Positions 1,838 through 39,690 of a stretch of 64,000 nt of DNA are shown one piece after another. Position numbers and translations under genes: made by a program. Positions within the stretch are counted from its first letter, which is position 1, and every line of letters begins with the position of its first letter. The notes beneath the pieces were generated by a model. That model searched no databases, was not told the DNA's origin, and saw only the letters and a program-made list of their open reading frames with translations. The stretch is from a phage, in sequence record PZ445435.1. The stretch is one strand, 5' to 3'.

Positions 1838-1853
1838 AGGGGCCGAAGCCCCT
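1838..1853 (-). promoter_or_regulatory. intercistronic stem-loop (AGGGGC-UUCG-GCCCCU) immediately upstream of RBS
   Basis: Perfect 6-bp stem with UUCG tetraloop between two ORFs, no U-tract. Confidence 0.4.
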
Positions 1854-1863
1854 CATTTTATTT

Positions 1864-2241
1864 TTAAATATCAAATTCGTTAAGAACTACATCAAAGATT
1901 GCTTCCAAGTGCTCAGGTTTAGCTTTGTTACTCAGAATATGACGAATCCAAGTTTTAACTAAGAGTTTACGATTAGCACCATTCCAGCAAGGATGAGTCC
2001 CTAAATCGCGTTGGCGGAAATCATCATCCAGAGCGATTTTGAAGTTGGAACCTTTCATCGTGATTGAAACCGTGATACCGTTTTCAAATCGCATATAAAC
2101 GTAGTTAGGAGTCATATACTGTTCAATTTCGCATACTGATCCGTTTTGATGTTTCCAGAGGCAAATAGTATCAATAGAACCTGCAATACCATTAGAAACA
2201 TATTTACGTTCAAAGTTGATGTAGTTCATTTTATTCTCCAA
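1864..2241 (-). CDS. hypothetical protein (125 aa)
   Basis: ORF track. Confidence 0.45.
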   Translation of the reverse strand: MENKMNYINFERKYVSNGIAGSIDTICLWKHQNGSVCEIEQYMTPNYVYMRFENGITVSITMKGSNFKIALDDDFRQRDLGTHPCWNGANRKLLVKTWIRHILSNKAKPEHLEAIFDVVLNEFDI

Positions 2242-2264
2242 GATGTTTAATTGCGGTACAGGTA

Positions 2265-2294
2265 TATAATATCATATCCTGTACCAAAGTAAAC
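2265..2294 (-). promoter_or_regulatory. T4-type early promoter (-35 GTTTAC, -10 TATTAT region)
   Basis: GTTTAC at 2294..2289, -10 about 17-18 nt downstream; palindrome gtacagg...cctgtac encloses the -10. Confidence 0.5.
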
Positions 2295-2296
2295 AA

Positions 2297-2629
2297 TTAT
2301 TTTACTACTTTCCAATGCTGCATGTCAAGTTTACCAACTTTTTTCATCTTCTCAATTAAGCGTTCTGCACGTTGGCGAGCTGTAACATAATGCCATTCGC
2401 CTAATTCATTTTGTTCAATTTTTCCAACGATTACTGTATTCAATTCATAAATCCAACCAGTAAAGAAATTATGAACTTGAATTGTAAAGGTGAAATCTGT
2501 TCCCATACCTTCTGTTGTTTCTACTTCAATAATATCACCTTCAACTGCCATTAAGAACCACATAGTTTCATTATATTTACCATTGAAGCATTTAGTTTTA
2601 ACTGCAGCGTTCAGATTAATCGTTTTCAT
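2297..2629 (-). CDS. hypothetical protein (110 aa)
   Basis: ORF track. Confidence 0.45.
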   Translation of the reverse strand: MKTINLNAAVKTKCFNGKYNETMWFLMAVEGDIIEVETTEGMGTDFTFTIQVHNFFTGWIYELNTVIVGKIEQNELGEWHYVTARQRAERLIEKMKKVGKLDMQHWKVVK

Positions 2630-2656
2630 TTTATTCTCCTTTGTTTGTGTAAGATA

Positions 2657-2686
2657 ATACTATCACAAAGGAACCATACTGTAAAC
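2657..2686 (-). promoter_or_regulatory. T4-type early promoter (-35 GTTTACA, -10 TAGTAT)
   Basis: Motif match and spacing; just downstream of a terminator hairpin. Confidence 0.5.
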
Positions 2687-2708
2687 AACTTTGTGCAATC
2701 TTTGGAAA

Positions 2709-2734
2709 ATAAAAAAGGACTCCCGAAGGAGTCC
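2709..2734 (-). terminator. rho-independent terminator (GGACTCC-UUCG-GGAGUCC + U6)
   Basis: Perfect 7-bp stem, UUCG loop, T-run on minus strand. Confidence 0.7.
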
Positions 2735-2739
2735 TCAAC

Positions 2740-2916
2740 TTATGCTTTCTGCTTACCAAAACGAGAAGCATCATCTCGAAGAACCGCACGTGCTCGGCGC
2801 ATGATCTTCTCAACAGTTTGATTGATACGAGAGTTCGACCCACGCTTGTAGCCAGCGCGTTTAGAATCACCAACTTTCTTTTCAACTGCTTTCTTTGCTT
2901 TAGCTTGTTTTGCCAT
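2740..2916 (-). CDS. small basic protein (58 aa, start at internal ATG)
   Basis: ORF track; Lys/Arg-rich; T4 30.9 position. Confidence 0.4.
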   Translation of the reverse strand: MAKQAKAKKAVEKKVGDSKRAGYKRGSNSRINQTVEKIMRRARAVLRDDASRFGKQKA

Positions 2917-3204
2917 TATAAATTCTCTTTTAAATGAAAATGCAGGACTTATTGGCATTGCCTGCGAAAGCCCTCAAAGGGGTACTTAGGTTTTGAATAT
3001 TTACCGACAGGATAACCATAAACCCGTCATCATACCACCAAGACTTACACAGATAACACTTTTCTGACGCATGATAGTAACATTCAAGAGGTACACCATA
3101 AAACTGCCGGGGTCTTAAAACTATAATGATTCGCAAATCATTAATCAGACAGTTCGACGGCTCCTCGTTTTAACTTCACACTAAGGCAGTGACTCTCCAA
3201 TAAA

Positions 3205-3453
3205 TTACTTCAGTGTTACCACAAAGTGACGAACTGCTTTTCGTGCGGCAGAAGCCAGAGGCTTAGCATATTTAAGTTCATCTTTTTCCTGAAGCTCAGC
3301 AGCTAATGCAGTTTGAGCAGGATTCAGATGTTTGAAATAACGCAGGATTTCAAGAGCTTCGGCTTCAACATCAATAGATGCGCCATAGTTTTCGTGACCA
3401 TTATTCCATGCGTTTCGTTGCAGTTCAAGAGCGTGTTGTAATTGTTTAATCAT
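3205..3453 (-). CDS. rIII: lysis inhibition accessory protein rIII
   Basis: 82-aa product matches recalled T4 RIII sequence and position next to gene 31. Confidence 0.85.
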   Translation of the reverse strand: MIKQLQHALELQRNAWNNGHENYGASIDVEAEALEILRYFKHLNPAQTALAAELQEKDELKYAKPLASAARKAVRHFVVTLK

Positions 3454-3571
3454 TTAAAAATTCTCGTTAGAGATTAAAACTCGGTAGTCACGTTCTTCTG
3501 AATTTCATCTTCTTTCGACAGATCTCTCAGTTGTAGACTACCACATAGAATTGAAACTCAATTCATATTAT

Positions 3572-3579
3572 TATTTATA
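3572..3579 (-). promoter_or_regulatory. candidate late promoter TATAAATA
   Basis: Exact TATAAATA on minus strand upstream of rIII. Confidence 0.35.
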
Positions 3580-3915
3580 TCACTTATAAAGACACGGAAT
3601 AGCTTTATAGTGACAGGTAACAAATTTTTGTTTAATTTCTTTTGGCTGCTTAAGACCTAGAGCTACAAAAGGATGCGGAACGTTTCGAATTTGACCAACT
3701 GGAAGAGAAGTCAAATCACCAACTTCGCAGAAACCTTCAGGAACATCAGGACCAACAGAGTGAACTACACACAGTTCAGGAACTTCACCTTGGACACGTT
3801 TACCAATAATAAGTCCTGATTCTGTAACTTCTTCATCACCGGCTTGCGCAGGTTCAGAAACTAAAATAACATATTCACCGACAGCACGAATTGGTAGCTG
3901 TTGTACTTCAGACAT
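3580..3915 (-). CDS. 31: co-chaperonin gp31 (GroES analogue for capsid folding)
   Basis: 111-aa product matches recalled T4 gp31. Confidence 0.9.
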
Positions 3916-3971
3916 CGTTTTTCCTTTTTGTTAACAGATGAATTAATAATAACAAATAATTCTTAAAGCAT

Positions 3972-4280
3972 TTATTTACCAATAAATTGAAGCAAATGCT
4001 CAACTTTCATGCCATTAACGGAAATCAATTTGTCAATAGAAAAACCTCGCCATGCACCGAGTTCAACATCAAATATCGGAATCATATCAGTAGATTCTTT
4101 CCGAGTAGATTCAGTCAATTTACCGGTTTGCATAGTTGGCATAAAGTCAGCATCACGGGTGCCTTTCATAGTACGAATAGTACCATCAGACTTTTCAAAA
4201 ACCACGTTTGAAATACCCATGGACAATTTAGTTTTCAAAATTTCACGAATTGCTACTTTCTGTTCAGTTGTCAGTTTCAT
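3972..4280 (-). CDS. hypothetical protein (102 aa)
   Basis: ORF track. Confidence 0.45.
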   Translation of the reverse strand: MKLTTEQKVAIREILKTKLSMGISNVVFEKSDGTIRTMKGTRDADFMPTMQTGKLTESTRKESTDMIPIFDVELGAWRGFSIDKLISVNGMKVEHLLQFIGK

Positions 4281-4517
4281 TTATTTACCTATTACAGTTT
4301 TAATATGAGTTGTTCCACGTTCTTTAAGAGTGGAAAGCAACTTTTGGCATTTTTCTAAATCAGATTTCCAACTATATGGTCTATCAATACTAGTCCAATC
4401 AGTTTTATAATACTGCTTCCATTTAGAGAAAAAATATTTCTTATACTCTACAGCAAATGAAATGTTCTCATTAGAATAAGAACTAATTGCTGTGAGTTGT
4501 ACCAAACGAAATTTCAT
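4281..4517 (-). CDS. hypothetical protein (78 aa)
   Basis: ORF track. Confidence 0.4.
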   Translation of the reverse strand: MKFRLVQLTAISSYSNENISFAVEYKKYFFSKWKQYYKTDWTSIDRPYSWKSDLEKCQKLLSTLKERGTTHIKTVIGK

Positions 4518-5098
4518 TATTCACCACAGAATTCGTTGATATTTTCCCAATTTAACTTATTCAAGTTTTTCTTAGGAACATTAAACACTTCAATACCTGC
4601 ATTTCGCAGAATATCATCCCAGCCAGGTTTATTTTTATCGTATGTTTCGCAATAAACCAGTTTTTTAATTCCAGATTGAGCTATGGCTTTTGCGCAATCT
4701 GGACAAGGAGAAAGTGTTACATACATAGTAGCACCTTCAATAGAAGAACCATTTCGTGCAGCAAACAAAATTGCATTTAGTTCAGCATGAATTTCATTTT
4801 TAGACGACCATTCAGAGTGAGCGCTACGGTGTTCTTTCGCCAAGACAAAGCGATCAGTTGAACCAAATGATACGCATTCAGGCTTATGGCCTTGGATGAT
4901 AGTATGTTTAGGTTTATTCAGCAACCAACCTTGCTCAGCGGCATAATCACAACAGTTCACACCTCCTGCGGGTGAACCGTTATACCCAGTAGAAATAATA
5001 CGTCCATTCTTTTCAATTACTGCTCCTACCTTCCAGGAGCAACATTTTGATTCTTGTGATACTAAATATGCAATTTGAAGTACTGTACTCGCTTTCAT
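4517..5098 (-). CDS. cd: dCMP deaminase
   Basis: 193 aa; HAE...PCxxC zinc-binding deaminase motifs. Confidence 0.9.
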   Translation of the reverse strand: MKASTVLQIAYLVSQESKCCSWKVGAVIEKNGRIISTGYNGSPAGGVNCCDYAAEQGWLLNKPKHTIIQGHKPECVSFGSTDRFVLAKEHRSAHSEWSSKNEIHAELNAILFAARNGSSIEGATMYVTLSPCPDCAKAIAQSGIKKLVYCETYDKNKPGWDDILRNAGIEVFNVPKKNLNKLNWENINEFCGE

Positions 5099-5433
5099 TT
5101 CATAATCACCAGATAAGCAGATTTAGCAGTTTCAACACGATAAATTTCATGACGAAGTTTAGTTATACTTTTAATAACAGAACTAATTATATTCTGTCCG
5201 TCTTTAAAGCGGTTTTTCTTATCAATAAAAATTGCGCCAACCATCTTTTTGTGAAGCTCAACTGGATACTTCGTCACAATAATAGCATCATATACAGAAG
5301 GATGAATACTATTTACTAGAGTGTCATTCATTAAAGTTATTCTAATGAACTGTGCTGTTTCAGAGTCAAGCGCTCTATGATCGCCAGTATCATTTTCAAG
5401 ACAATTATCAATTATATCAGTTAAATTCATCAT
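5095..5433 (-). CDS. hypothetical protein (112 aa)
   Basis: ORF track, ATGA overlap. Confidence 0.45.
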   Translation of the reverse strand: MMNLTDIIDNCLENDTGDHRALDSETAQFIRITLMNDTLVNSIHPSVYDAIIVTKYPVELHKKMVGAIFIDKKNRFKDGQNIISSVIKSITKLRHEIYRVETAKSAYLVIMK

Positions 5434-5708: not shown

Positions 5709-5725
5709 AACTCTACCGTAAACTA

Positions 5726-6001: not shown

Positions 6002-6003
6002 AT

Positions 6004-6382: not shown

Positions 6383-6394
6383 GATGCCACGCCA

Positions 6395-7616
<1,222 letters not shown>

Positions 7617-9051: not shown

Positions 9052-10639
<1,588 letters not shown>

Positions 10640-10647
10640 AATAAAAT

Positions 10648-10661
10648 GGGCCTTGCGGCCC
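10648..10661 (-). promoter_or_regulatory. GNRA-loop hairpin (GGGCC-GCAA-GGCCC) 8 nt upstream of denA ATG
   Basis: Perfect 5-bp GC stem between nrdB stop and denA start. Confidence 0.4.
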
Positions 10662-10666
10662 ACTCC

Positions 10667-11845
10667 TTAAAAATATTTTTTAAAACTCATCATAACTTTA
10701 TCATCAACATCATTATCAATCTGTGCAACAAGATAAGATGACAGTTCTACTTCTTGTGGCGCGGATTGAACATTATCAGAATTAAGATATTCACGAATCC
10801 AAGGATATGGGTGTTTAACCGGAGCATCGGTAATTGGGCATGGAAGACCACACTGTTTCATACGAGATACAGTTAAGTAATCAATAAAGCTCCACATGTT
10901 ATTTGTATTTAATCCAGGAACATCGCCATCTTTAAATAAATGAACTGCCCAATCTTTTTCTTGGCGGTTAACTTCCATGAAAATATCAACTGCTTCTTGT
11001 TCACACTCTTGAGCAATTTTAACCCATTCATCGCCATCAGTGCCAAGTTGAAGTTGACGAATAATATATTGAGTGCCTTTAAGGTGAAGCTGTTCATCAC
11101 GTGCAATGAACTTCATAATCTTTGCATTGCCTTCCATAATTTCCATGTTCTTATGGAAGTTAAAGGTACATGCGAAAGATACATAAAAACGAATAGCTTC
11201 CAATGCGTTGATTACATGCAAACAGAGGTAAAGAGATTTCATTAGCTCACGCTTCCAATATGTCTCATGCTCAATAGCATCTTCAATAACATCTTCGTCT
11301 GCATTAATTTCTTTTTGGTATTCGATATCAGCTTTAGCGTTTTCCCAATAACGAGTTTTAGTCAGAACATCATCATAATAACGTCCAATGGATTCAGCAC
11401 GTTTCATAATAGCTTCATCTAATACAATCTCATCAAATACCTTTGACGGATCAGTATAAAGATTTCGCATGATATGTGTATATGAACGAGAGTGAATAGT
11501 TTCACTAAAAGTCCACGTAGCAACCCATGTATCAAGGCTTGGGTCTGAAATTAATGACATAAGTACAGCAGACGGCGCACGACCCTGAATGCTATCCAAA
11601 AGTGATTGATACTTCAGGTTATTAGTAAAAATATTTTGCTGATACTGAGGAAGCTTATTAAACTGTGCAGCATCCATCATTAAGTTTACTTCTTCAGGAC
11701 GCCAAAAAAATGATAAAGATTTCTCAATAAGTTCTTCAAATACTCTATGTCGTTGAATATCATATCGAGCTAAACCCAATCCAGAACCAAAAAACATCGG
11801 CTCAGTCAAAATATTAACAGGGGATGTATTAAAAACTGTACTCAT
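10667..11845 (-). CDS. nrdB: ribonucleotide reductase small subunit (intronless)
   Basis: 392 aa, di-iron/tyrosyl radical R2 family, contiguous ORF. Confidence 0.9.
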   Translation of the reverse strand: MSTVFNTSPVNILTEPMFFGSGLGLARYDIQRHRVFEELIEKSLSFFWRPEEVNLMMDAAQFNKLPQYQQNIFTNNLKYQSLLDSIQGRAPSAVLMSLISDPSLDTWVATWTFSETIHSRSYTHIMRNLYTDPSKVFDEIVLDEAIMKRAESIGRYYDDVLTKTRYWENAKADIEYQKEINADEDVIEDAIEHETYWKRELMKSLYLCLHVINALEAIRFYVSFACTFNFHKNMEIMEGNAKIMKFIARDEQLHLKGTQYIIRQLQLGTDGDEWVKIAQECEQEAVDIFMEVNRQEKDWAVHLFKDGDVPGLNTNNMWSFIDYLTVSRMKQCGLPCPITDAPVKHPYPWIREYLNSDNVQSAPQEVELSSYLVAQIDNDVDDKVMMSFKKYF

Positions 11846-14747: not shown

Positions 14748-15064
14748 AAGTCCTCAACTTGAAAATCGTCTTTAAACAATCGGTTAACTATATGAGCTAT
14801 TATATCACCATGACACGGCTTTGGTTTACATGTGCATCCTAGCCTCATTCCACGTAAAGGCTCTAAATGTGCTTTAGTTATTTCTCCGGATTTAATTCGA
14901 CGTATAAAATCTTTTTTGAATAATTCAATGGCAGCCTCCCGGCTGCCAGCATCTTTACCGACGTAATTTCCCCAAAATGTACCGCGGTGAATATTAACAT
15001 CAAAGTCGGATTTGTATTTATTCACTACCCGGCATAGACGGCCCGGTTGGTAATAATTCTTCAT
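14738..15064 (-). CDS. DUF4326-like protein (108 aa)
   Basis: C...CxC...CHGD pattern; ORF track. Confidence 0.45.
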
Positions 15065-22112: not shown

Positions 22113-25100
22113 ATGGCCGAGATTAAAAGAAAGTTCAGAGCAGAAGACGGTCTGGACGCAGGTGGCGATAAAATAATCAACGTAGCTTTAGCTGATCGTA
22201 CCGTAGGAACTGACGGTGTTAACGTTGATTACTTAATTCAAGAAAACACAGTTCAACAATATGATCCAACTCGTGGATATTTAAAAGATTTTGTAATCAT
22301 TTATGATAACCGCTTTTGGGCTGCTATAAATGATATTCCAAAACCGGCAGGAGCTTTTAATAGCGGGCGCTGGAGAGCATTACGTACAGACGCAAACTGG
22401 ATTACGGTTTCATCTGGTTCATATCAATTAAAATCCGGTGAAGCTATTTCGGTTAATACTGCAACTGGAAATGACATCACGTTTACTTTACCATCTTCTC
22501 CAATTGATGGAGATACTATCGTTCTCCAAGATATTGGAGGAAAACCTGGAGTTAACCAAGTTTTAATTGTAGCTCCAGTGCAAAGTATTGTAAACTTTAG
22601 AGGTGAACAGGTACGTTCAGTACTAATGACTCATCCAAAGTCACAGCTAGTTTTAATTTTTAGTAATCGTCTGTGGCAAATGTATGTAGCTGATTATAGT
22701 AGAGAAGCTGTAGTTGTAACACCAGCGAATACTTATCAAGCGCAATCTAATGATTTTATCGTGCGTAGATTTACTTCTGCTGCACCAATTAATGTCAAAC
22801 TTCCAAGATTTGCTAATCATGGCGATATTATTAATTTCGTTGATTTAGATAAACTGAATCCACTTTATCATACAATTGTTACTACATACGATGAAACGAC
22901 TTCAGTACAAGAAGTTGGAACTCATTCCATTGAAGGCCGTACATCGATTGACGGTTTCTTGATGTTTGATGATAATGAGAAATTGTGGAGATTGTTTGAC
23001 GGGGATAGTAAAGCACGTTTACGCATTATAACGACTAATTCTAATATTCGTCCAAACGAAGAAGTTATGGTATTTGGTGCGAATAACGGAACAACCCAAA
23101 CAATTGAGCTTCAGCTTCCTACTGATATTTCTGTTGGTGATACTGTTAAAATTTCCATGAATTACATGAGAAAAGGACAAACAGTTAAAATCAAAGCTGC
23201 CGGTGAAGATAAAATTGCTTCTTCAGTTCAATTGCTGCAATTCCCAAAACGCTCAGAATATCCGCCTGAAGCTGAATGGGTTACAGTCCAAGAATTAGTT
23301 TTTAATGGTGAAACTAATTATGTTCCAGTTTTACAGCTCGCTTATATTGAAGATTCTGATGGAAAATACTGGGTTGTACAGCAAAATGTTCCAACTGTAG
23401 AAAGAGTAGATTCTTTAAATGATTCTACTAGAGCAAGATTAGGCGTAATTGCTTTAGCTACACAAGCTCAAGCTAATGTCGATTTAGAAAATTCTCCACA
23501 AAAAGAATTAGCAATTACTCCAGAAACGTTAGCTAATCGTACTGCTACAGAAACTCGCAGAGGTATTGCAAGAATAGCAACTACCGCTCAAGTAAATCAG
23601 AACACCACATTCTCTTTTGCAGATGACCTTATCATTACTCCTAAAAAGCTGAATGAAAGAACTGCTACAGAAACTCGTAGAGGTGTTGCTGAAATTGCTA
23701 CGCAGCAAGAAACTAATACAGGTACTGATGATACTACAATCATCACTCCTAAAAAGCTTCAAGCTCGCCAAGGTTCTGAATCATTATCTGGTATTGTAAC
23801 TTTTGTATCTACTGCAGGTGCTACTCCAGCTTCTAGTCGTGAATTAAATGGTACGAATGTTTATAATAAAAACACTAATAATTTAGTTGTTTCACCTAAA
23901 GCTTTGGATCAGTATAAAGCTACTCCAACACAGCAAGGTGCAGTAATTTTAGCAGTTGAAAGTGAAGTAATTGCTGGACAAAGTCAGGAAGGATGGGCAA
24001 ATGCTGTTGTAACGCCAGAAACGTTACATAAAAAGACATCAACTGATGGAAGAATTGGTTTAATTGAAATTGCTACACAAAGTGAAGTTAATACAGGAAC
24101 TGATTATACTCGTGCAGTCACTCCTAAAACTTTAAATGACCGTAGAGCAACTGAAAGTTTAAGTGGTATAGCTGAAATTGCTACACAAGTTGAATTCGAC
24201 GCAGGCGTCGACGATACTCGTATCTCTACACCATTAAAAATTAAAACTAGATTTAATAGTACTGATCGTACTTCTGTTGTTGCTCTATCTGGATTAGTTG
24301 AATCAGGAACTCTCTGGGACCATTATACCCTTAATATTCTTGAAGCAAATGAGACACAGCGTGGTACACTTCGTGTAGCTACACAGGTTGAAGCTGCTGC
24401 AGGAACATTAGATAATGTTTTAATAACTCCTAAAAAGCTTTTAGGTACTAAATCTACCGAATCGCAAGAAGGTGTTATTAAAGTTGCAACTCAGTCTGAA
24501 ACTGTGACTGGAACATCAGCAAATACTGCTGTATCTCCAAAAAATTTAAAATGGATTGTGCAGAGTGAACCTACCTGGGCAGCTACTACTGCGATAAGAG
24601 GTTTTGTTAAAACTTCATCTGGTTCAATTACATTCGTTGGTAATGATACAGTCGGTTCTACCCAAGATTTAGAACTGTATGAGAAAAATAGCTATGCGGT
24701 ATCACCATATGAATTAAACCGTGTATTAGCAAATTATTTGCCGTTAAAAGCAAAAGCTGTAGATAGTAATTTATTGGATGGTCTAGATTCATCTCAGTTC
24801 ATTCGTAGGGACATTGCGCAGACAGTTAATGGTTCACTAACCTTAACCCAACAAACGAATCTGAGTGCCCCTCTTGTATCATCTAGTACTGCTGCGTTTG
24901 GTGGTTCAGTTTCGGCAAATAGTACATTAACTATTTCTAATACTGGAACGGCAACTCGTCTGATTTTTGAGAAAGGACCTCAAACTGGAACTAACCCAGC
25001 GCAGACGATGACTATCAGAGTTTGGGGAAATCAGTTTGGTGGTGGATCAGATACAACACGTTCTACTGTATTTGAAGTTGGTGATGAAACATCTAATCAC

Positions 25101-27108: not shown

Positions 27109-27137
27109 TGAGGGAGCCTTCGGGTTCCCTTTTTCTT
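27109..27137 (+). terminator. rho-independent terminator after gene 35
   Basis: AGGGAGCC-UUCG-GGUUCCCU hairpin followed by UUUUCUUU. Confidence 0.6.
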
Positions 27138-27842: not shown

Positions 27843-30800
27843 ATGGCTACTTTAAAACAAATACAATTTAAAAGAAGCAAAACCGCAGGTGCACGTCCTG
27901 CTGCTTCAGTATTAGCCGAAGGTGAATTGGCTATAAACTTAAAAGATAGAACAATTTTTACTAAAGATGATTCAGGAAATATCATCGATTTAAGCATTTC
28001 TACTGGCGGTAATATCAGTGGTAATATCACTCAAACTGGTGATTATACACAGACTGGAAAATTTAATTTAATTGGTCCGCAAATTGTAGCAAGCGGTGGA
28101 TATATTGAGTTTAATTATCGTACTACTGGAAGTGGGGCTTGGTCCGGTCAACATACTGCGAAAGCTCCAATTTTTGTAGATTTAAGCTCAGCTACTTCCA
28201 CATCTGAATATAATCCTATAATTAAACAGCGCTTTAAAGATGGAACTTTTTCATTAGGTACTTTAGTTTCTGAAGGTTCGTTGAAGATTCATTATATCAA
28301 TGAATCTGGCGATTCGAAATATTGGACGTTTCGACGTGACGGCGGATTTACTGTTGACGGTGGAGGTTTAGCAGTATCAGGAGGTAGTATAACTACATCT
28401 GGAAATATTGCAGCTATTGGAAATATTACTTCGCCTCAGATTAATACTAAAAATATTATTTTAGATACAAAAGCATTTGGACAATACGATTCGCAATCAT
28501 TAGTTCAATATGTTTATCCTGGAACAGGCGAAGAAAATGGTATAAACTATCTTCGTAAAGTTCGAGCTAAATCAGGCGGTACAATTTATCATGAATTAGC
28601 TTCTGCGCAAACCGGAAAAAGTGATGAACTTTCTTGGTGGACTGGTAATACAGCCGTTAATAAACAAATGGGTCTTCGTAATGATGGGGCTTTAGTATTA
28701 CGACGCTCACTCGCAATTGGTACAATTACAACAGATGAAAACATTAATAACTACGGCTCCGCTGGAGCAATGGGCGAATGTTATATAGTTATCGGTGATG
28801 CATCAACAGGCTTATCATACAAAAAAACTGGAGTATATGATTTAGTTGCTAGTGGTCTTTCTTTAGCATCTATTACTCCTGATAGTTTCCGTAGTACCCG
28901 TAAAGCGATTTTTGGTCGTTCCGAGGACCAAGGTACAACATGGATTATGCCTGGAACCAACGCCGCGTTTTTATCGGTTCAAACACAAGCTGATGAAAAC
29001 ACTGCTGGAGACGGCCAGACGCATATTGGCTATAACTCAGGCGGAAAAATGAACCACTATTTCCGTGGTAAAGGCAAAACTAATATTAATACTCAAGAAG
29101 GCATGGAAGTTAACCCGGGTATTTTGAAATTGGTAACTGGCTCTAATAATGTAATGTTTTATGCTGATGGCGGTATTACATCTGTTAAGCAGCTTTCAAT
29201 ATATAATGGCATATATTTAGCAGCTAATAATTCTACTGCTGGGCTAACATTCGCTCCAACTACTACAATTGATGGCACTAAGCAAATTTTGTGGGAAGGC
29301 GGTACTCGTGCTGGTCAGAATAAAAGCTATGTAACTGTTAAAGCATGGGGTAATTCATTTAACGCATCTGGCGATCGTAATCGTGAAACGGTTTTTGAAG
29401 TAGCTGATGGACAAGGATATTATTTTTATTCACAGCGTGTGGCTCCAAGTGGCTCTGAAACTACTGGGCCTGTTGTAACCCAGTTCAATGGACAAGTTAA
29501 TGCTAGAGGAAGTATTATTACTGACGGAAGTTTTAAAGTTAATGGATTAAGCACTTTAGTCGGTAATGTTACCATGTCTAATGGTTTGTTTGTCCAAGGT
29601 GGTTCTTCTATTACTGGACAAGTAAAAATTGGTGGAACTGCTGATGCATTAAGAATTTGGAATGCCGAATACGGTGCTATTTTCCGTCGCTCAGAAACAG
29701 CATTACATATTATCCCGACTCCTAAAGATGCCGGTGAAAGTGGTGGAATAAGTAATCTCCGCCCACTTAGTATTAGTCTTAATAATGGTATGGTACAAAT
29801 GCGCCATTCTGTTACGTTAGGCGATGATGGCGCTGGCGGTAATATGATTACTGTGGACAACGATACCAAACTTGTTGTTGTTACTAGTAATAGTCGCATT
29901 TCTCCTAATTACCGTATGCAGGTAGGACAAGCAGCTTATATTGATGCTGAATGTACTGACACAGTTCGCCCGGCTGGTGCAGGGTCTTTTGCTTCACAAA
30001 ATAATGAAAACGTTCGTGCTCCATTCTATATGAATATTAATCGTACAGATACAAGTACTTACGTTCCTATTTTGAAACAACGATATGTCCAAGGAAACAG
30101 TTGTTATTCTCTGGGAACTCTAATTAACGGCGGTAACTTCAGAGTTCATTATCATGAAGGCGGCGATGGCGGTTCGACTGGCGCTATTATAAAGGATTTA
30201 GGTTGGGAATTTAACAAAAATGGTGATTTTATATCTCCTAAGCGTGTTTCTGCTGGTGGTTCAGTTTATTTAGGTACAGACGGCAATATTACAGGTGGTT
30301 CTGGCAATTTTGCTAATTTAAACAGTACAATTGAATCACTTAAAACCGATATTGTATCGAGTTACCCAATCGGTGCTCCTATTCCATGGCCAACGGATAC
30401 TCCTCCTGACGGTTACGCTATTATGGAAGGCCAGACTTTTGATAAGTCTGCATACCCAAAATTGGCTATGGCTTACCCATCTGGCGTAATTCCAGATATG
30501 CGCGGGCAAACTATTAAAGGTAAACCAAGTGGTCGAGCTGTATTAAGCGCAGAAGCCGATGGTGTTAAGGCTCATAGCCATAGTGCATCGGCTTCAAGTA
30601 CTGACTTGGGTACTAAAACTACGTCGAGTTTTGATTATGGTACTAAGACGACAAGTAGCTTTAACTATGGCACTAAGACTAGCAATACCACAGGTAACCA
30701 CTCTCATACTGTAAGCGGTACTACGAGTTCTGCTGGTGCACACCAACATGCGCGCTCAGGTCCTCAGATACAAGCCGGCATACCCAATAACATATTCTAT

Positions 30801-31118
30801 GACGGATATAATAGTGTAGGTGCAAACGCCAACGCTAAATTCACTGGAACCGTGAACGGTGCTACTGCAGGGTCGAATATAGCCAAAACTTCTTCAGACG
30901 GTGCTCATACTCATACTTGGTCTGGTACTACAAGCACTACAGGTAACCATGCTCACACAGTAGGTATTGGTGCTCATACCCATACTGTAGGTATCGGTGC
31001 TCATACCCACACGGTAGCAATTGGCTCGCATGGTCATACTATCACTGTAAATAGTACAGGTAATACAGAAAACACGGTTAAAAACATTGCTTTTAACTAT
31101 ATCGTTCGTTTAGCATAA
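27843..31118 (+). CDS. 37: long tail fibre distal subunit gp37 (receptor-binding tip with HxH needle)
   Basis: 1091 aa; N- and C-termini match T4 gp37, central region divergent. Confidence 0.95.
30609..30689 (+). repeat. 30-bp tandem repeat (about 2.7 copies) encoding GTKTTSSF(D/N)Y within gene 37
   Basis: Direct inspection of adjacent near-identical 30-mers. Confidence 0.7.
30954..31034 (+). repeat. 27-bp tandem repeat x3 encoding HTVGIGAHT His-box (metal-binding HxH) in gene 37
   Basis: Three consecutive 27-mers. Confidence 0.7.
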
Positions 31119-31122
31119 GGAG

Positions 31123-31138
31123 AGGGGCTTCGGCCCCT
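31123..31138 (+). promoter_or_regulatory. stem-loop (AGGGGC-UUCG-GCCCCU) sequestering the gene 38 RBS region
   Basis: Perfect stem between gene 37 stop and gene 38 ATG, no U-tract. Confidence 0.45.
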
Positions 31139-31145
31139 TCTAAAT

Positions 31146-31697
31146 ATGAAAATATATCATTATTATTTTGACACTAAAGAATTTTACAAAGAAGAAAATT
31201 ACAAACCGGTTAAAGGCCTCGGTCTTCCTGCTCATTCAACAATTAAAAAACCTTTAGAACCTAAAGAAGGATATGCAGTTGTATTTGATGAACGTACTCA
31301 GGATTGGATTTATGAAGAAGACCATCGCGGAAAACGAGCATGGACTTTTAATAAAGAAGAAATTTTTATAAGTGAAATTGGAAGCCCGGTTGGTATAACT
31401 TTTGATGAGCCTGGCGAATTTGATATATGGACTGATGACGGTTGGAAAGAAGACGAAACATATAAGCGAGTTTTAATTCGTAATAGAAAAATTGAAGAAT
31501 TATATAAAGAGTTCCAAGTTTTAAATAATATGATTGAAGCTTCTGTCGCCAATAAAAAGGAAAAATTTTATTATAAAAACCTTAAGCGGTTCTTTGCTCT
31601 TTTAGAAAAGCATGAGCATTTAGGTGGTGAATTCCCTTCATGGCCTGAAAAAGAACGGAAACCTTGGTATAAGCGTTTATTCAAGCATTACGTATAA
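31146..31697 (+). CDS. 38: tail fibre assembly chaperone gp38 (T4-type)
   Basis: 183 aa; matches recalled T4 gp38. Confidence 0.9.
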   Translation: MKIYHYYFDTKEFYKEENYKPVKGLGLPAHSTIKKPLEPKEGYAVVFDERTQDWIYEEDHRGKRAWTFNKEEIFISEIGSPVGITFDEPGEFDIWTDDGWKEDETYKRVLIRNRKIEELYKEFQVLNNMIEASVANKKEKFYYKNLKRFFALLEKHEHLGGEFPSWPEKERKPWYKRLFKHYV

Positions 31698-34466: not shown

Positions 34467-35102
34467 TCACAGTTCAGATGCTACAGTGATTACTGCTTCA
34501 ATGTTTTCTGCCGAACGTCTAATGTCAAGATACACATTACCGTTTTTAGCGATTTTACATGACATTCCGATATCAGTAAATTTCTGAATATGATGTTCCA
34601 TCATTTTGTATCCAAAAATTCGCATATTTCCATTGTTGTTAATTTCAAAATTACGAATTCCGTGAGTGCGTTTTTCTAAAATGGCAAGATAATTACTACG
34701 ATAAGTTTCAACCTTTTTAAGAACAAATCCATTTTCATCTAAAAGTTTTAACATGAGGTCTTTATCTTCTTCCATATCGGAAGTAATCTCGCGAGCTTTA
34801 CGAGTTGCTCGTTTTTTCAGTAGTTCCGGAGCATTTTCCTGTGCATATAAAGTTGCTGCATTTGAAATAATATCCTGAGCTTCACCAGTAATGATTAATC
34901 CATCACCAGATTTCTCCACCAGGCCTTTTTTAATCAATACCCCAATATTACTATTAACTACTGCGTTACCTAAATCTGGATGCACCTCACGAACTTCTGC
35001 AGCTGTAATGAAATCTTTCTTAGCAATAGTAATTAAAATCGCAGCAGTTTTTTCATTCAGAACATCGTTAGAAGCTTTGATGATGTAAGTTACTTTAGAC
35101 AT
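34467..35102 (-). CDS. motA: middle transcription activator MotA
   Basis: 211 aa; matches recalled T4 MotA. Confidence 0.9.
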   Translation of the reverse strand: MSKVTYIIKASNDVLNEKTAAILITIAKKDFITAAEVREVHPDLGNAVVNSNIGVLIKKGLVEKSGDGLIITGEAQDIISNAATLYAQENAPELLKKRATRKAREITSDMEEDKDLMLKLLDENGFVLKKVETYRSNYLAILEKRTHGIRNFEINNNGNMRIFGYKMMEHHIQKFTDIGMSCKIAKNGNVYLDIRRSAENIEAVITVASEL

Positions 35103-35173: not shown

Positions 35174-35195
35174 CGTTTTGTGAAAAAAATTTTGA

Positions 35196-35223
35196 AATAA
35201 AAAAGGAGAGCCGAGGCTCTCCC
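35196..35223 (-). terminator. rho-independent terminator downstream of the gene 52 unit
   Basis: GGAGAGCC-GAG-GGCTCTCC perfect stem followed by U6. Confidence 0.75.
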
Positions 35224-35228
35224 TAAAA

Positions 35229-35378: not shown

Positions 35379-36703
35379 TTGATTTCCTCTAAATCTTTGG
35401 TGTATTCAGTAACTACATCAGTAGTTTTCCAATATTCGTTTTCTTCTTTTTTAGCTTTAGCTTCTTCAGCAAGTTTCTTTGCTTCGTCGGAAGTCATATG
35501 AAAAATATTCATACCAACTAGTTTATCAACATAAGAAGAATACATCTCAATTTTAGAAAGTTCTTCAGTCAGTTCTTTGCGAGTTTTACCCTGCACAACG
35601 ATTTCGCCTGAAATTACTTTCTTAATGAAATGTGCCTTGGCAAAGGCTAAACGAAAAGCTGATTCAGTTTCTTTGATTTTGTTATCAATTCGTTTTTGGA
35701 CATAAGTTTTACGAACTTCAACAAAGTCTTTAATTAAATCAACTACATTATCGTAAACTTGTAGCTTTCCTTTCTCATTAATAACGGTGATATTCTGGGA
35801 ACGACGCTCAATCAACCCAAAGTCTTTCATGATTTTTGCATGGCGTTCTTCTTCGTTATCGCTTAAGGAATATTCTTTACGGAATTTAACTTTGAAGCCA
35901 AAACCATGCTCACCGCAAGCATCATCCCACGTAATGAAGCCTTTATCTTCAAGCGGGTCTAAGATTTTACTCACATAAGTTTCACGATCATACTTATACG
36001 GAATCTCAGTGATATGCATTTGAGTTCGTGAAGTAAACTTGTATGTTCCACGAATTTCATATTGACCGTCAATTTCAACGACTTCACCGCGAAATTCTGG
36101 GAATTCTACCTTCGGTTTAGTTACTTTCTTTCCTTGAAGAGCTTGCAGTACAGCTTTCTTGACAGAAGAAACGCTATGAGGAAGAATGTAAGTTGCATAA
36201 CCAGTTGCAATACCGGAAACACCATTAAGAAGAACAGTAGGAATAATAGGCAAATAGAAAGCAGGCGGAATGTGTTCTTTATCTTGATGTACCGGAGCAT
36301 ATTCAGTATCTTTATATACATTATAGAAATTTTTACTTACACGAGCAAAAATATAACGACTTGCCGCTGCTTTTTGAACGGTACGAGAACCAAAGTTTCC
36401 TTGACCATCTAACAAAGGAAAGTTATTATTCCAAGTGTTAGCCATCAAAGCACCTGCGTCTTGCGCAGAGTTTTCACCATGATGATATCCAAGGTCTGCT
36501 ACACCGCCTGCAATAGAAGCGAGTTTGTGAAACTTATCTTTATTTCCTCGTGCCAAATCAAGAGCTCGAGCAATAACAAATCGTTGAACTGGCTTAAATC
36601 CATCAATCATATTTGGGATAGCACGATTTTCAACCGTGTACATAGCATAAGCCAATGCTTCATTATCAATGATACTTTTTAAATCGCGATTATTCAGTTG
36701 CAT
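35375..36703 (-). CDS. 52: DNA topoisomerase II medium subunit gp52
   Basis: 442 aa; GyrA-like N-terminal domain, size and synteny. Confidence 0.9.
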   Translation of the reverse strand: MQLNNRDLKSIIDNEALAYAMYTVENRAIPNMIDGFKPVQRFVIARALDLARGNKDKFHKLASIAGGVADLGYHHGENSAQDAGALMANTWNNNFPLLDGQGNFGSRTVQKAAASRYIFARVSKNFYNVYKDTEYAPVHQDKEHIPPAFYLPIIPTVLLNGVSGIATGYATYILPHSVSSVKKAVLQALQGKKVTKPKVEFPEFRGEVVEIDGQYEIRGTYKFTSRTQMHITEIPYKYDRETYVSKILDPLEDKGFITWDDACGEHGFGFKVKFRKEYSLSDNEEERHAKIMKDFGLIERRSQNITVINEKGKLQVYDNVVDLIKDFVEVRKTYVQKRIDNKIKETESAFRLAFAKAHFIKKVISGEIVVQGKTRKELTEELSKIEMYSSYVDKLVGMNIFHMTSDEAKKLAEEAKAKKEENEYWKTTDVVTEYTKDLEEIK

Positions 36704-36707
36704 AAAT

Positions 36708-36848
36708 TTACCATACTAGTGAATGTAGTGCCATAATAACATCAGAAATGAAAAGCACGACTTGAATTAATCCGAACATTATTCCGTAATATAATGCTAT
36801 CAATAAAATAGCAAGGGCTAATGAATAGCCCAAGATTTTCTTAATCAT
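36708..36848 (-). CDS. small membrane peptide (46 aa, not in track)
   Basis: Own translation; hydrophobic. Confidence 0.3.
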   Translation of the reverse strand: MIKKILGYSLALAILLIALYYGIMFGLIQVVLFISDVIMALHSLVW

Positions 36849-36999
36849 TAGTAGATAACAACACAAATGTTAAATATGCACACATACCCTGAGCTAAAGC
36901 TTGCGAAAACACACTGCTGGCATCAATACAGATAGTTAAAACACATGCTACTATCCAACAAATAAATGAAATAACTCCTAATAATTTTGCAATATTCAT
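36841..36999 (-). CDS. small membrane protein (52 aa), possible ac homologue
   Basis: Own translation; GAGGA SD; position downstream of stp as in T4. Confidence 0.35.
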   Translation of the reverse strand: MNIAKLLGVISFICWIVACVLTICIDASSVFSQALAQGMCAYLTFVLLSTND

Positions 37000-37006
37000 A
37001 TTTTCC

Positions 37007-37087
37007 TCACTGGTGTCCGAAGACGCCTTTGGTTTTAAGATTGTTACGATAGAACTGCATCACGTGTTCGTTGTGGAAATTACTCAT
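37007..37087 (-). CDS. stp: Stp peptide (26 aa, anti-restriction peptide that activates PrrC)
   Basis: Own translation [26 protein letters not shown], matches recalled T4 Stp. Confidence 0.7.
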
Positions 37088-37545
37088 TAATATGCCTGCA
37101 AAACAAATTTAAAGTTATCAGCCAACATACGGTTCATTTCTTCAAGTGTTTGATACTCAGAATGATGATTACGAGTAAACGCTAAAGCTAACTGTCCTTT
37201 TCCAAATCCCGTCGTCAGAGGTTTCATCTTAGAAGCAGGCAGATAAAATACTGTGTATACCATATTGTTATTTGCAATAGTACGTGCAAGCTGAGACCGA
37301 CGTTGACGAATATGACTTAGAACTGCACTGAATCCTTGCTTAGAACGCTGATTACCTACATAAAATCGTGCAGACACACATGGATTACTAAATGGACGAC
37401 CATCTAATTTACTTACTAAAAAGTAAAATCCAGGTTTAGATAAAATGTCTTTATGCGGAGTTCCCAAAAACCATTCACCGCCCTTGATTGTGCCAATAAC
37501 AGTAGCGCCTGCATTATTCAGATCAGTAACAGTCATGTATTTCAT
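37087..37545 (-). CDS. ndd: nucleoid disruption protein Ndd
   Basis: About 152 aa from internal [12 protein letters not shown]; matches recalled T4 Ndd. Confidence 0.8.
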
Positions 37546-37605
37546 ATTAATTTCCTCTAAATTATTTTCTACTCCAAGGCCGCATGAATACACGCGGCCA
37601 TTAAA

Positions 37606-37821
37606 TTAATCGTCGCAGTCGACGCTCAATTCCCAAAACTCTTCTACGGTATAAGTTTCAGTATCATTTTCAATACAGAAACGTTCATTACTGTTATTTG
37701 CTAAAGTAGCGTTAACTGTCATTTTCTCGCTGGTGCTCTTAAGAGGTGAAATACGAATTAACTGATCACCACTATCCAAGCAAAAAATTTCACCAACTTT
37801 TACATCTTTAAAGATTTTCAT
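37606..37821 (-). CDS. hypothetical protein (71 aa)
   Basis: ORF track. Confidence 0.4.
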   Translation of the reverse strand: MKIFKDVKVGEIFCLDSGDQLIRISPLKSTSEKMTVNATLANNSNERFCIENDTETYTVEEFWELSVDCDD

Positions 37822-37936
37822 AATTCACCTCAAGGAGTATAAAATCCAAATGCAGTTGTTGACCATCCCATCCAATATGGAAAATTTGCACCAATGTAAA
37901 ACATAAGAATATAAAACCAAATGTTTAGTAAATTCA

Positions 37937-38155
37937 TCATTTTACACCATTCCAAATTGTTTCAACTACGGATTTTAAACCATTCTGATGAATATCCATT
38001 CCGACTACCGCCATCAAATAGATTCCAACTACAACTGAACCTAAGGCAAAAATCAGCATGAAAATGAATAAAGCCGGAAAAATATTATCGAAAAACCATT
38101 CAATAAATGTAAAAGCACTGCGTTTACGCTTCATATTTTCCTCACATAAATCCAA
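37937..38155 (-). CDS. small membrane protein (72 aa)
   Basis: Two predicted TM helices. Confidence 0.4.
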   Translation of the reverse strand: MDLCEENMKRKRSAFTFIEWFFDNIFPALFIFMLIFALGSVVVGIYLMAVVGMDIHQNGLKSVVETIWNGVK

Positions 38156-38255
38156 AGTAAACGTTTAATACATCAATCATTAAAACGATTGGGAATATAC
38201 TCAAAACTACTAGTATTATAACTACATTCCATATAGCTTTAACAATCTTTTTCAT
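38142..38255 (-). CDS. small single-TM peptide (37 aa, internal start of track ORF)
   Basis: Start follows promoter and GGAGGA SD. Confidence 0.35.
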   Translation of the reverse strand: MKKIVKAIWNVVIILVVLSIFPIVLMIDVLNVYFGFM

Positions 38256-38283
38256 TTTCTGTTCCTCCGTAGTTGATAGGGTA

Positions 38284-38313
38284 ATAGTACCACGGAAGAA
38301 CAGTCTTGTAAAC
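38284..38313 (-). promoter_or_regulatory. T4-type early promoter with conserved leader cassette
   Basis: Near-identical to the 18003 and 38791 copies. Confidence 0.55.
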
Positions 38314-38498
38314 AACTTTTTTAAAAATATTCGTAATAAATGTGAATACCAACTACTACCGCTGAAACCTGTGCAACCCACCACGCACAAGCAATAAGTA
38401 CAGAATTCAAAATTTTCATAATAACCTCATCACAAAAGTAAATGTTAAACAAATTACTGGAATACTAATTAACCAAACAAAACACCACCATAATGAAC

Positions 38499-38762
38499 TC
38501 ATAGTTCAATCTCAGCGATTTTCATTTTATTACTATTAATAGCCTCTTTAAGACTATCTGAAAGAATTACATTCCAGTGGTCATTCATATGACCATTAAC
38601 TAAGCGTGTAATTTCTTCAGGAGTTGAAAAATAAGGCTGATCAGACTCCCAATGCGATAATCCTAAGCGAGTATAAATCATGCCTTCATCATCGCTAGAA
38701 TATTCAACTGACACAAACTCATCAGTTATTTTATGTTTAGCGTAATAAAATTTAAATTTCAT
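38499..38762 (-). CDS. hypothetical protein (87 aa)
   Basis: ORF track. Confidence 0.45.
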   Translation of the reverse strand: MKFKFYYAKHKITDEFVSVEYSSDDEGMIYTRLGLSHWESDQPYFSTPEEITRLVNGHMNDHWNVILSDSLKEAINSNKMKIAEIEL

Positions 38763-38790
38763 TTTCCGCTCCTCCGTAGTTGATAGGGTA

Positions 38791-38820
38791 ATAGTACCAC
38801 GGTCCTTGTGGTATGTAAAC
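38791..38820 (-). promoter_or_regulatory. T4-type early promoter with conserved leader cassette
   Basis: GTTTACA...TGGTACTAT then CCCTATCAACTACGGAGGAG. Confidence 0.55.
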
Positions 38821-38838
38821 CGTTTTGTGAAAAAATTT

Positions 38839-39396
38839 TTAAATGGAAAGATACCATCCGTTGTAGTTGCTTTTTCTTACAACCCTACGAAGGTCTTCTC
38901 TGTCACCGATGAACTTCGGAGTGTACTGGATGACACCTGGATGAATTTCTTTAGTGTTGAATATAATTATACAGTCAGCGACTTGATGATTTAGAATGGG
39001 CCCTAAATTTATTCCAGAACCATATGGATACTCTCCGCTGCATCCCGTTGTTACCGAAATCCAACGCGAGTCAGTTTGATGTGTTTTGACTTCTACACGA
39101 AGCCCGCAATATTTTGGATGCGCTAAAACATCCCATGCATACGTGTACGGATCATCGACATTTTCTTGGCCTTTATTGACATATCCGCTTAGCCAATCTG
39201 CCACAAAAAACTCTGCGTACACAGCGATACGGCATCTTTCGATAACTTCTGCTTTATCCTGGTTCGGGTTTTGTTTTAAAGAGTATCTTGCTGTATCAGC
39301 AATTTTGACCTTCATTTCACTAGTCAAGTCACTGTTCGATAGGGTAAATGTCGGAATCTGAAATAGTCTCTGTAAACCCGGATTCGTTTTCTGCAT
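38839..39396 (-). CDS. denB: probable endonuclease IV (DenB), by size and synteny
   Basis: 185 aa adjacent to rIIB. Confidence 0.55.
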   Translation of the reverse strand: MQKTNPGLQRLFQIPTFTLSNSDLTSEMKVKIADTARYSLKQNPNQDKAEVIERCRIAVYAEFFVADWLSGYVNKGQENVDDPYTYAWDVLAHPKYCGLRVEVKTHQTDSRWISVTTGCSGEYPYGSGINLGPILNHQVADCIIIFNTKEIHPGVIQYTPKFIGDREDLRRVVRKSNYNGWYLSI

Positions 39397-39443
39397 TTAA
39401 ACTTTCCTTTATGTCGGAATCATAATTTCTCTTAAAACAAAAG

Positions 39444-39462
39444 GGCCGAAGCCCTTATTTTA
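39444..39462 (-). terminator. hairpin AAGGGC-UUCG-GCCCUU followed by U-rich tract
   Basis: Perfect stem then UUGUUUU on minus strand. Confidence 0.45.
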
Positions 39463-39654
39463 TTTGAATTGTGCGATTCTTTTCTCTAGACACTCAGCAT
39501 AAGATTTCATTGAGATGAACTGTGAAAGCAGCAGTTCTTGCTCAACTGCACTAACCGTTAGAAACTTTGTGCTTTCTAAAAATTTGCTCAGTGCATTAAT
39601 TTTGAGCATTAATTGATCGTATTCTTCTTTTACTCGTGCTTGATAACCTAACAT
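39460..39654 (-). CDS. hypothetical protein (64 aa)
   Basis: ORF track. Confidence 0.4.
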   Translation of the reverse strand: MLGYQARVKEEYDQLMLKINALSKFLESTKFLTVSAVEQELLLSQFISMKSYAECLEKRIAQFK

Positions 39655-39667
39655 AATTTTCCTTAAT

Positions 39668-39690
39668 ATGATAAGGGCCGAAGCCCTTAT
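39668..39690 (-). promoter_or_regulatory. intercistronic UUCG stem-loop upstream of RBS
   Basis: UAAGGGC-UUCG-GCCCUUA perfect stem. Confidence 0.4.

Follow-up and report, generated by a model that had tools for sequence, protein, structure and literature searches.

Four perfect tetraloop hairpins, located at the gene junctions 30.7/30.6, nrdB/denA, 37/38 and rIIB/denB.1 (sites 1 to 4) of a 64,000-nucleotide (nt) stretch of phage DNA (sequence record PZ445435.1, referred to in its entirety as the window), are likely to be sense mRNA hairpins of a T4-type family of extra-stable intercistronic elements with C(UUCG)G or GNRA loops, which are anchored to the stop codon of the upstream gene, and at these four sites the next gene follows so closely that the hairpin borders on its ribosome-binding site or reaches into it. 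Two arrangements can be discerned within this reading. In arrangement A, represented by denA and gene 38, the hairpin splits the ribosome-binding site, being placed between the Shine-Dalgarno sequence and the AUG, while in arrangement B, represented by 30.6 and denB.1, it is followed by an ordinary site. The window belongs to a Tequatrovirus, a close relative of T4, as teqhad and other Tequatrovirus phages match a 3-kb probe from around genes 37 and 38 at 99.3-99.6% identity.

Hairpins at gene junctions

An initial annotation, made from the letters alone, had described perfect GC-rich stems with UUCG or GCAA loops just upstream of four start codons, and all four were indeed found at the places given there, with perfect stems; the hairpin between rIIB and denB.1 had been assigned a start at 39668, which is 3 nt too early (Table 1). 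Each of the four lies between open reading frames (ORFs) on the same strand, with the start codon 7-16 nt downstream, and the loops are UUCG or GCAA when read in the sense direction (minus strand at sites 1, 2 and 4, plus strand at site 3). The folding calculation proposed there as a check yielded nearest-neighbour predictions of -11.2 to -11.6 kcal/mol for these four hairpins of 16-20 nt, and in contexts of 66-71 nt the core of the minimum-energy fold was the hairpin itself at every site.

We defined a strict hairpin class as tetraloops on perfect stems of at least 5 base pairs (bp), at least four of them G-C, and used 200 dinucleotide shuffles as a control. The window contains 18 hairpins of this class versus 1.85 +/- 1.4 in the shuffles, an enrichment of about 10-fold, with eight UUCG loops versus 0.015 expected (about 500-fold) and three GNRA loops versus 0.125 expected, so that a chance origin was rejected. 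A broader local-folding scan (cut-off of -9 kcal/mol, 34 nt, both strands) returned 337 structures and was too noisy, and the strict class was therefore kept. All 11 hairpins with UUCG (eight) or GNRA (three) loops are in sense orientation relative to the local genes, for which the probability under a strand-symmetric, DNA-level model is 2^-11. Moreover, extra-stable RNA tetraloops (UUCG, GAAA, GCAA, GUAA and CUUG) replace one another while the stems co-vary.

The position of the hairpins follows the upstream gene. All 10 intergenic hairpins begin at -4 to +10 nt relative to the last nucleotide of the upstream stop codon, and 7 to 102 nt separate them from the next start codon. Where the intergenic region is 62-126 nt long (six cases), no hairpin starts more than 7 nt from the stop, and we roughly put the joint chance of this at about 3e-6. 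The conclusion that the hairpins are RNA-level elements tied to gene junctions is supported. The four sites are part of a set of at least 10 such intergenic hairpins in the window, and U-tracts and early promoters come after several of the rest. In view of the anchoring to stop codons across the family, the four sites would be those members that happen to have the next start codon at a distance of 7-16 nt. The translational role originally proposed for them is thus retained in part: the hairpin bears on initiation at gene 38 and denA, but the family as a whole is anchored to the upstream stop and not to the downstream start.

Split initiation region of gene 38 and a proposed one of denA

The hairpins had been placed immediately 5' of ribosome-binding sites, which is correct for sites 1 and 4, whereas at sites 2 and 3 the hairpin is inside the site, between AAGGAG and AUG. 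The junction sequences, uuuUAAGGAG-[UGGGCCGCAAGGCCCA]-UUUUAUU-AUG for nrdB/denA and gcaUAAGGAG-[AGGGGCUUCGGCCCCU]-UCUAAAU-AUG for 37/38, have identical geometry, in which AAGGAG is directly followed by the 16-nt hairpin, 7 nt and the AUG. The linear distance between GGAG and AUG is 23 nt at both sites, and the 7-nt spacer lacks any Shine-Dalgarno-like motif. When every start codon of the window was scanned for this order of elements (Shine-Dalgarno, hairpin, 3-11 nt and AUG, with no nearer Shine-Dalgarno), exactly two cases were returned, denA and gene 38. A linear spacing of 23 nt would be too long to work at either gene; folding of the hairpin would loop out 16 nt and restore a spacing of about 7 nt, and the hairpin would then be a positive part of the initiation site, as published experiments have demonstrated for T4 gene 38.

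Split initiation regions of T4 genes 38 and 25 were reportedly described by Nivinskas and colleagues in 1999 and by Malys and Nivinskas in 2009. Site 3 is the published gene 38 split binding site, or translational enhancer. In T4 gene 38, a structure formed by the RNA that separates the Shine-Dalgarno sequence from the AUG cuts the spacing from 22 to 5 nt, a structure of the same kind cuts it from 27 to 11 nt in gene 25, and destabilising mutations in the intervening sequence lower initiation in both genes (PMC3014915). Site 3 is therefore the gene 38 case itself, with 22-23 nt of linear distance reduced to about 5-7 nt, and site 2 shares its geometry to the nucleotide. Since the denA junction has this geometry, and since its Shine-Dalgarno sequence, hairpin and post-hairpin spacing are conserved, we infer the same mechanism for denA, which would make it a putative split binding site. 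The difference between denA and the gene 38/25 sites is a conserved U-rich tail after the denA hairpin, suggesting an added terminator role.

Conservation of the denA junction was examined in 36 IMG/VR loci with DenA identities of 60-100%. In 35 of the 36, UAAGGA or UAAAGGA is followed by a perfect hairpin and then by 5-10 nt to the AUG, the flanking spacers adding up to about 7-10 nt. The stems differ (GGGCC, GGGAC, GGGGC, GGGAGAC, AGGGC, CAGGGC, GAGGGC and AGGGCC), with a matching 3' arm in each, and the loops are mostly UUCG, with GCAA or GUAA in the T4 group and UUUG, CUUGA and CUUG also present. In a MAFFT alignment of 17 denA-junction sequences with a 6-bp helix, 95% of the cells are paired, four of the six pairs are altered on both sides, and there are 20 compensatory cells; the covariation score is 0.534 versus 0.178 in shuffles, none of 500 shuffles scored as high, and pairing collapsed to 21.6-66.3% when the 3' partner was slid. 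In the single exception (locus L028, 540-615) neither the hairpin nor the Shine-Dalgarno sequence is left, and nrdB and denA overlap through ATGA. The pattern is also found in Mosigvirus ATK48 and in an unclassified Providencia phage (CUUG loop). The gene that precedes denA in Krischvirus JK32 has at its end a stop codon, a hairpin and UUUGUUGUG, followed by an ordinary Shine-Dalgarno sequence, and the Aeromonas and Slopekvirus denA genes examined have no hairpin.

The gene 38 junction is likewise maintained in relatives: 10 sequences from Tequatrovirus, Dhakavirus, Gaprivervirus and Mosigvirus all keep UAAGGAG, an A, the hairpin, and 6-9 nt before the AUG, with compensatory stems (GGGGC/GCCCC, GGGCC/GGCCC and GGGAC/GUCCC) and loops UUCG, UUCU and GUUA. 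Because the MAFFT alignment of this junction was out of register for two sequences, these pairs were read directly from the sequences and not counted by the tool. Covariation in homologous phages, another of the checks initially proposed, could thus be observed, as stems are conserved with compensatory changes at denA, at gene 38 and at site 1. The comparative data would provide clean phylogenetic support for the split-site mechanism and would extend it from genes 38 and 25 to denA.

The four hairpins had also been described as lacking a U-tract, and, from their position, as elements other than terminators. The former is wrong for denA, where UUUUAUU directly follows the hairpin, and the latter is too strong, given this tail and a terminator predicted on the same hairpin in phage ATK48, where an ARNold terminator is annotated at its position. 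The 7-nt spacer after the hairpin contains on average 4.6 U in the denA family and 3.6 U in the gene 38 family, versus 2.2 +/- 1.1 in 75 ordinary A-rich spacers of the window. With a U-tract criterion of at least five U in 8 nt, site 2 (UUUUAUUA) has 6/8, site 1 (UACUGAGG) is below the threshold, and sites 3 (UCUAAAUA) and 4 (CAUAUUAA) are weak; the terminator scan had missed site 2 because it drew the stem out through G.U pairs. In view of the U-rich tail and the ARNold call, the denA element is probably also a weak attenuator: the hairpin with UUUUAUU would double as a weak intrinsic terminator after nrdB, and such weak termination would hold expression of the denA nuclease low.

Combining both properties, we tentatively regard nrdB-denA as a split site conserved with covariation in Tevenvirinae and related Straboviridae, which would act as a dual device, serving as a weak terminator after nrdB and making denA translatable on those transcripts that read through, and as one case of a general coupling module in which a stop/Shine-Dalgarno overlap is followed by a hairpin and an AUG (37/38, nrdB/denA, perhaps 26/25); this wider proposal is credible, if slightly short of probable. 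If true, the module would hold a downstream gene with a catalytic or toxic product at a low, fixed proportion to a strongly expressed gene before it. More generally, a compact phage means of setting expression ratios at gene junctions is suggested.

The assignment of the denA start codon is affected by the hairpin. The start that is conserved, the ATG at 10639, yields a protein of 136 amino acids, and in RefSeq T4 (NC_000866, 137517-137951) denA is annotated from a GTG within the hairpin, for a protein of 144 amino acids. The GTG start was rejected, as upstream GTG or ATG codons in relatives are either not conserved or out of frame, and the crystallised protein starts with MKEIATEY, which follows the tag in the DenA construct of PDB 2WSH. 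Hairpins like these mislead gene callers on start codons, and because of them terminator predictors call "terminators" within ribosome-binding sites.

Table 1. Positions of the hairpins and of the associated translation signals in the window
Feature	Positions	Strand	Description
Site 1 hairpin	1838-1853	-	AGGGGC-UUCG-GCCCCU; -11.2 kcal/mol; between gene 30.7 stop and gene 30.6 ribosome-binding site
Site 2 hairpin	10647-10662	-	UGGGCC-GCAA-GGCCCA; -11.6 kcal/mol; between denA Shine-Dalgarno and denA AUG
Site 3 hairpin	31123-31138	+	AGGGGC-UUCG-GCCCCU; -11.2 kcal/mol; between gene 38 Shine-Dalgarno and AUG (31146-31148)
Site 4 hairpin	39671-39690	-	AUAAGGGC-UUCG-GCCCUUAU; -11.2 kcal/mol; rIIB to denB.1
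Shine-Dalgarno GAGG, gene 30.6	1830-1833	-	4 nt 3' of site 1 hairpin; AUG 1821-1819
UAAGGAG, nrdB/denA	10663-10669	-	nrdB stop (10669-10667) overlapping denA Shine-Dalgarno AAGGAG (10668-10663)
Spacer UUUUAUU and denA AUG	10637-10646	-	U-rich 7-nt spacer (10646-10640); AUG (10639-10637)
UAAGGAG, 37/38	31116-31122	+	gene 37 stop (31116-31118) overlapping gene 38 Shine-Dalgarno AAGGAG (31117-31122)
UUCG hairpin	2716-2735	-	4 nt after stop codon; then U7 tract and early promoter (GTTTACA...)
GNRA (GGGA) hairpin, 8-bp stem	14929-14948	-	inside ORF; identical in T4 at 142862
UUCG hairpin, imperfect (G.U pair)	27112-27133	+	GGGAGCC-UUCG-GGUUCCC; 5 nt after gene 35 stop, 35 nt before gene 36
CUCG-loop hairpin	35205-35222	-	6 nt after stop codon; then U-tract and promoter-like GGTTTACA
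UUCG hairpin	39441-39456	-	AAGGGC-UUCG-GCCCUU; 3 nt after denB.1 stop; then UUGUUUU (terminator-like)
UUCG hairpin	44953-44970	-	AAAGGCC-UUCG-GGCCUUU; overlaps upstream stop codon; gene 39 start 49 nt away
UUCG hairpin	55467-55488	-	7 nt after stop codon; then U-tract and early promoter
GNRA (GAGA) hairpin, 6-bp stem	55935-55950	-	inside ORF
UUCG hairpin, 8-bp stem	61723-61742	-	UCCCCCUC-UUCG-GAGGGGGA; -15.9 kcal/mol; inside ORF 61443-61799 (gene 40-like)

Hairpins preceding 30.6 and denB.1

Sites 1 and 4 fall outside the split class because their Shine-Dalgarno sequences (GAGG or AAGGA) are 3' of the hairpin, 4-6 nt from it, and at a normal spacing of 5-8 nt from the AUG. The site 1 hairpin begins 10 nt after the 30.7 stop, with the 30.6 AUG 16 nt downstream. 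It is kept in 13 related loci and in T4, always 2-5 nt 5' of an invariant GAGGAAAAU, and the 30.6 start region, UGAGGAAAAU(A/G)(U/C)UAUG, is essentially invariant in relatives. In these loci a change from G-C to A-U is compensated (GGAGGC/GCCUCC), the loops are UUCG, UUCA (in T4), UUUG or GAAA, and in an alignment of eight distinct sequences the helix is 100% paired, with two co-varying pairs. One related locus (L042, 515-600) has lost the genes that precede 30.6; its hairpin is found about 25 nt after the -10 box of an early promoter, and still just 5' of the 30.6 binding site. The stem of the site 4 hairpin includes the rIIB stop codon UAA (39689-39687) at its base; 6 nt separate the hairpin from the Shine-Dalgarno sequence AAGGA (39664-39660), after which comes the denB.1 AUG (39654-39652). 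In distant relatives with RIIB identities of 51-53% (three loci, L060-L062), the genes overlap directly and there is no hairpin.

The most likely role of the hairpin at these two sites is at the 3' end of the upstream message, where it would act as a transcript-end element of the upstream cistron, either blocking 3'-to-5' exonucleases or serving as a weak terminator. As a fast-folding structure, it may in addition keep the adjoining Shine-Dalgarno sequence clear of long-range pairing. An in silico G/C swap in the 5' arm at sites 1 and 4 lowered the predicted accessibility of the Shine-Dalgarno sequence, and was dropped as a design artefact, since the C-rich 3' arm released by the swap pairs with the Shine-Dalgarno sequence, which is G-rich.

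The site 1 palindrome can also be read on the plus (antisense) strand (1838-1863), where it is followed by CATTTTATTT and was flagged as terminator-like by the scanning tool; it could in principle stop antisense transcription. The denB.1 gene (39460-39654) is flanked by a 19-nt direct repeat, AATAAGGGCTTCGGCCCTT (39441-39459 and 39673-39691, minus strand), which is formed by two hairpins and looks like the boundary of a cassette insertion or shuffling event of the kind discussed below for stem-loops associated with early promoters.

Alternative explanations and known systems

Several observations weigh against the reading of the four hairpins as stop-anchored family members in two arrangements. 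The folding z-scores of the 66-71 nt contexts are modest (-1.8 to -2.8). The case for a denA split site is made up of geometry and conservation, and covariation proves a conserved hairpin, not which of its functions is selected; the U-rich denA tail fits a pure attenuator model equally well. In the T4 group, moreover, the minimum-energy denA stem extends via G.U pairs into GGAG and could partly mask, rather than present, the Shine-Dalgarno sequence, although this extension was set aside, as the flanks of the relatives give it no support. In arrangement B every proposed function is putative; the site 4 hairpin is limited to close Tequatrovirus relatives (loops UUCG or UUUG), with no covariation, and retention of the site 1 hairpin in L042 fits a role for the downstream gene at least as well as one at the upstream 3' end.

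Of the competing explanations, the one that survives best concerns the UAAGGAG junctions and is possible, albeit on the unlikely side: a terminating ribosome, positioned over the Shine-Dalgarno sequence, would melt the hairpin, the refolding of which would bring the AUG to a tethered 30S or 70S for re-initiation, so that downstream translation would depend on upstream translation. The stop/Shine-Dalgarno overlap is conserved at both junctions in nearly all relatives, L028, which is devoid of the module, has the ATGA overlap that represents the classic coupling arrangement, and the 5' arm of the hairpin begins 4 nt after the stop codon, i.e. within the footprint of a terminating ribosome, the size of which is well established. 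The experiments on genes 38 and 25, on the other hand, were interpreted as a correction of the Shine-Dalgarno/AUG spacing (PMC3014915). The coupling and spacing-correction models are not mutually exclusive, and are inseparable by sequence data alone.

It is unlikely that all four hairpins are simply weak intrinsic terminators or attenuators after the upstream stop, in which case proximity to the next start would reflect genome compaction and the hairpin would contribute nothing to translation of the downstream genes from read-through transcripts. They do resemble intrinsic terminators in being GC-rich hairpins located right after a stop codon, as is every intergenic member of the family; several members have full U-tracts (2716, 35205 and 55467), with promoters after several of them, denA has the conserved UUUUAUU and the ARNold terminator in ATK48, and the hairpin upstream of denA in Krischvirus JK32 is followed by UUUGUUGUG and an ordinary Shine-Dalgarno sequence. 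However, sites 1, 3 and 4 lack an adequate U-tract (UUACUGAG, UUCUAAAU and UUAUCAUA), and the next gene begins 7-16 nt later with no promoter of its own. Neither the lack of a Shine-Dalgarno sequence between hairpin and AUG at denA and gene 38, nor the conservation of the upstream AAGGAG and of the 5-10 nt post-hairpin spacing, is predicted by termination, and the published mutagenesis of genes 38 and 25 indicates that the intervening structure favours translation (PMC3014915). No map of transcript 3' ends of a T4-like phage was found in the literature searched.

Less probable still is a function in processing or stability on behalf of the downstream gene, whereby the hairpin, after cleavage by RNase E or RegB or downstream of a nearby promoter, would become a protective 5'-terminal stem-loop. 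Its placement in L042 just after an early promoter, with the upstream genes deleted, would agree with such a function, as would the resistance to RegB of T4 GGAG motifs that are buried in stable stem-loops, often with UUCG (PMC1702504); yet across the family the hairpin tracks the upstream stop and not the downstream start, and its retention in L042 may be an accident of the deletion endpoint. The least credible explanation, that these are DNA-level palindromes (recombination or shuffling cassettes, or the stem-loop half of promoter-early stem-loop (PeSL) modules) and not functional RNA, draws on the recurrence of identical hairpin sequences at unrelated loci (a 16-mer, and 18- and 20-mers duplicated in T4), on the 19-nt repeat of two hairpins around denB.1 and on the proposal that PeSLs are agents of modular shuffling (PMC4122927), and is countered by the 11/11 sense orientation, the G.U-dependent member, the exchange of RNA loops and the compensatory stems, all of which point to selection on RNA, as well as by the lack of a promoter after any of the four sites. 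RNA- and DNA-level roles could coexist.

In agreement with the family reading, the hairpins have well-known counterparts in T4. C(UUCG)G hairpins in intercistronic regions of T4 mRNA were reportedly described by Tuerk and colleagues in PNAS in 1988, with no single function assigned to them. The class is characterised by high measured thermal stability and by a block to reverse transcriptase. The UUCG tetraloop was discovered in T4 mRNA and its extraordinary stability described (PMC4371310), and T4 intergenic stem-loops often carry UUCG according to a RegB study (PMC1702504). The hairpins of the window are found in the same phage group and partly at the same loci, are over-represented between cistrons in sense orientation, and are predicted to be very stable for hairpins so small; a C-G-closed UUCG on a short G-C-rich stem is present at sites 1, 3 and 4, whereas site 2 has C(GCAA)G, the denA loop being GNRA (GCAA or GUAA) in the T4 group and UUCG in most relatives. 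The phenomenon is therefore not new, as both the UUCG hairpins and the gene 38 element are published, and, the class having been textbook material since 1988, no new question is opened by it. The only new-looking piece is the putative denA split site, which is apparently undescribed, no mention of it having been found in the literature searched, and for which no priority is claimed.

A second known system is formed by the PeSL cassettes of T4-type phages, of which Arbiol is said to have given an account in 2010. We recognised PeSLs by an early promoter (TTTACW-N17-TAYWAT) no more than a few tens of nt after a stem-loop. Promoter-early stem-loop cassettes of this kind are known from T4-type phages (Comeau 2014, PMC4122927). 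Their stem-loop half resembles the hairpins of the window, where a stem-loop with an early promoter is present at 2716, at 55467 and probably at 35205, and repeats flank denB.1; at the four sites, by contrast, no promoter follows the hairpin and the next AUG is 7-16 nt away. The hairpin at 2716-2735 is a terminator of the PeSL type.

Other members of the family offer a few additional observations. The hairpin after gene 35 requires its G.U pair and hence folds only as plus-strand RNA. The hairpin at 61723-61742, upstream of gene 41, is in frame with its ORF, encodes SPSSEGE, and is identical in T4 at 22329. A 16-mer hairpin sequence is common to site 1, site 3 and the T4 regA/43 junction, the 20-mer of window position 2716 occurs twice in T4, with one copy after soc, and the 18-mer of position 44953 is also present twice in T4 (T4 positions 29953; 130340 and 15304; and 125544 and 5381).

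The gene order of the window matches that of T4, running from the 30.x genes to rIIB and rIIA and on to genes 40 and 41. Most genes are on the minus strand, and genes 34-38 and t are on the plus strand. At 43083-44903 (minus strand), where T4 has genes 39 and 60, there is one ORF of 606 amino acids, from which it appears that the gene 60 split and its bypass element are missing in this phage. The nrdB and thymidylate synthase ORFs look unbroken, and group I introns are thus apparently absent from them. Rfam searches at gathering thresholds gave no family matches across the 64-kb window. In the T4 reference (NC_000866), the run of G or C is one base shorter in three hairpins (GGGGCUUCGGCCC, AAGGCUUCGGCCCUU and AAAGGGCUUCGGCC) than in the window and other relatives; the shorter runs, at 34628-34640, about 42960-42945 and about 42738-42724, correspond to window positions 31123, 39671 and 39441, and may be either genuine variants or, the hairpins being very stable, old errors caused by gel compression.

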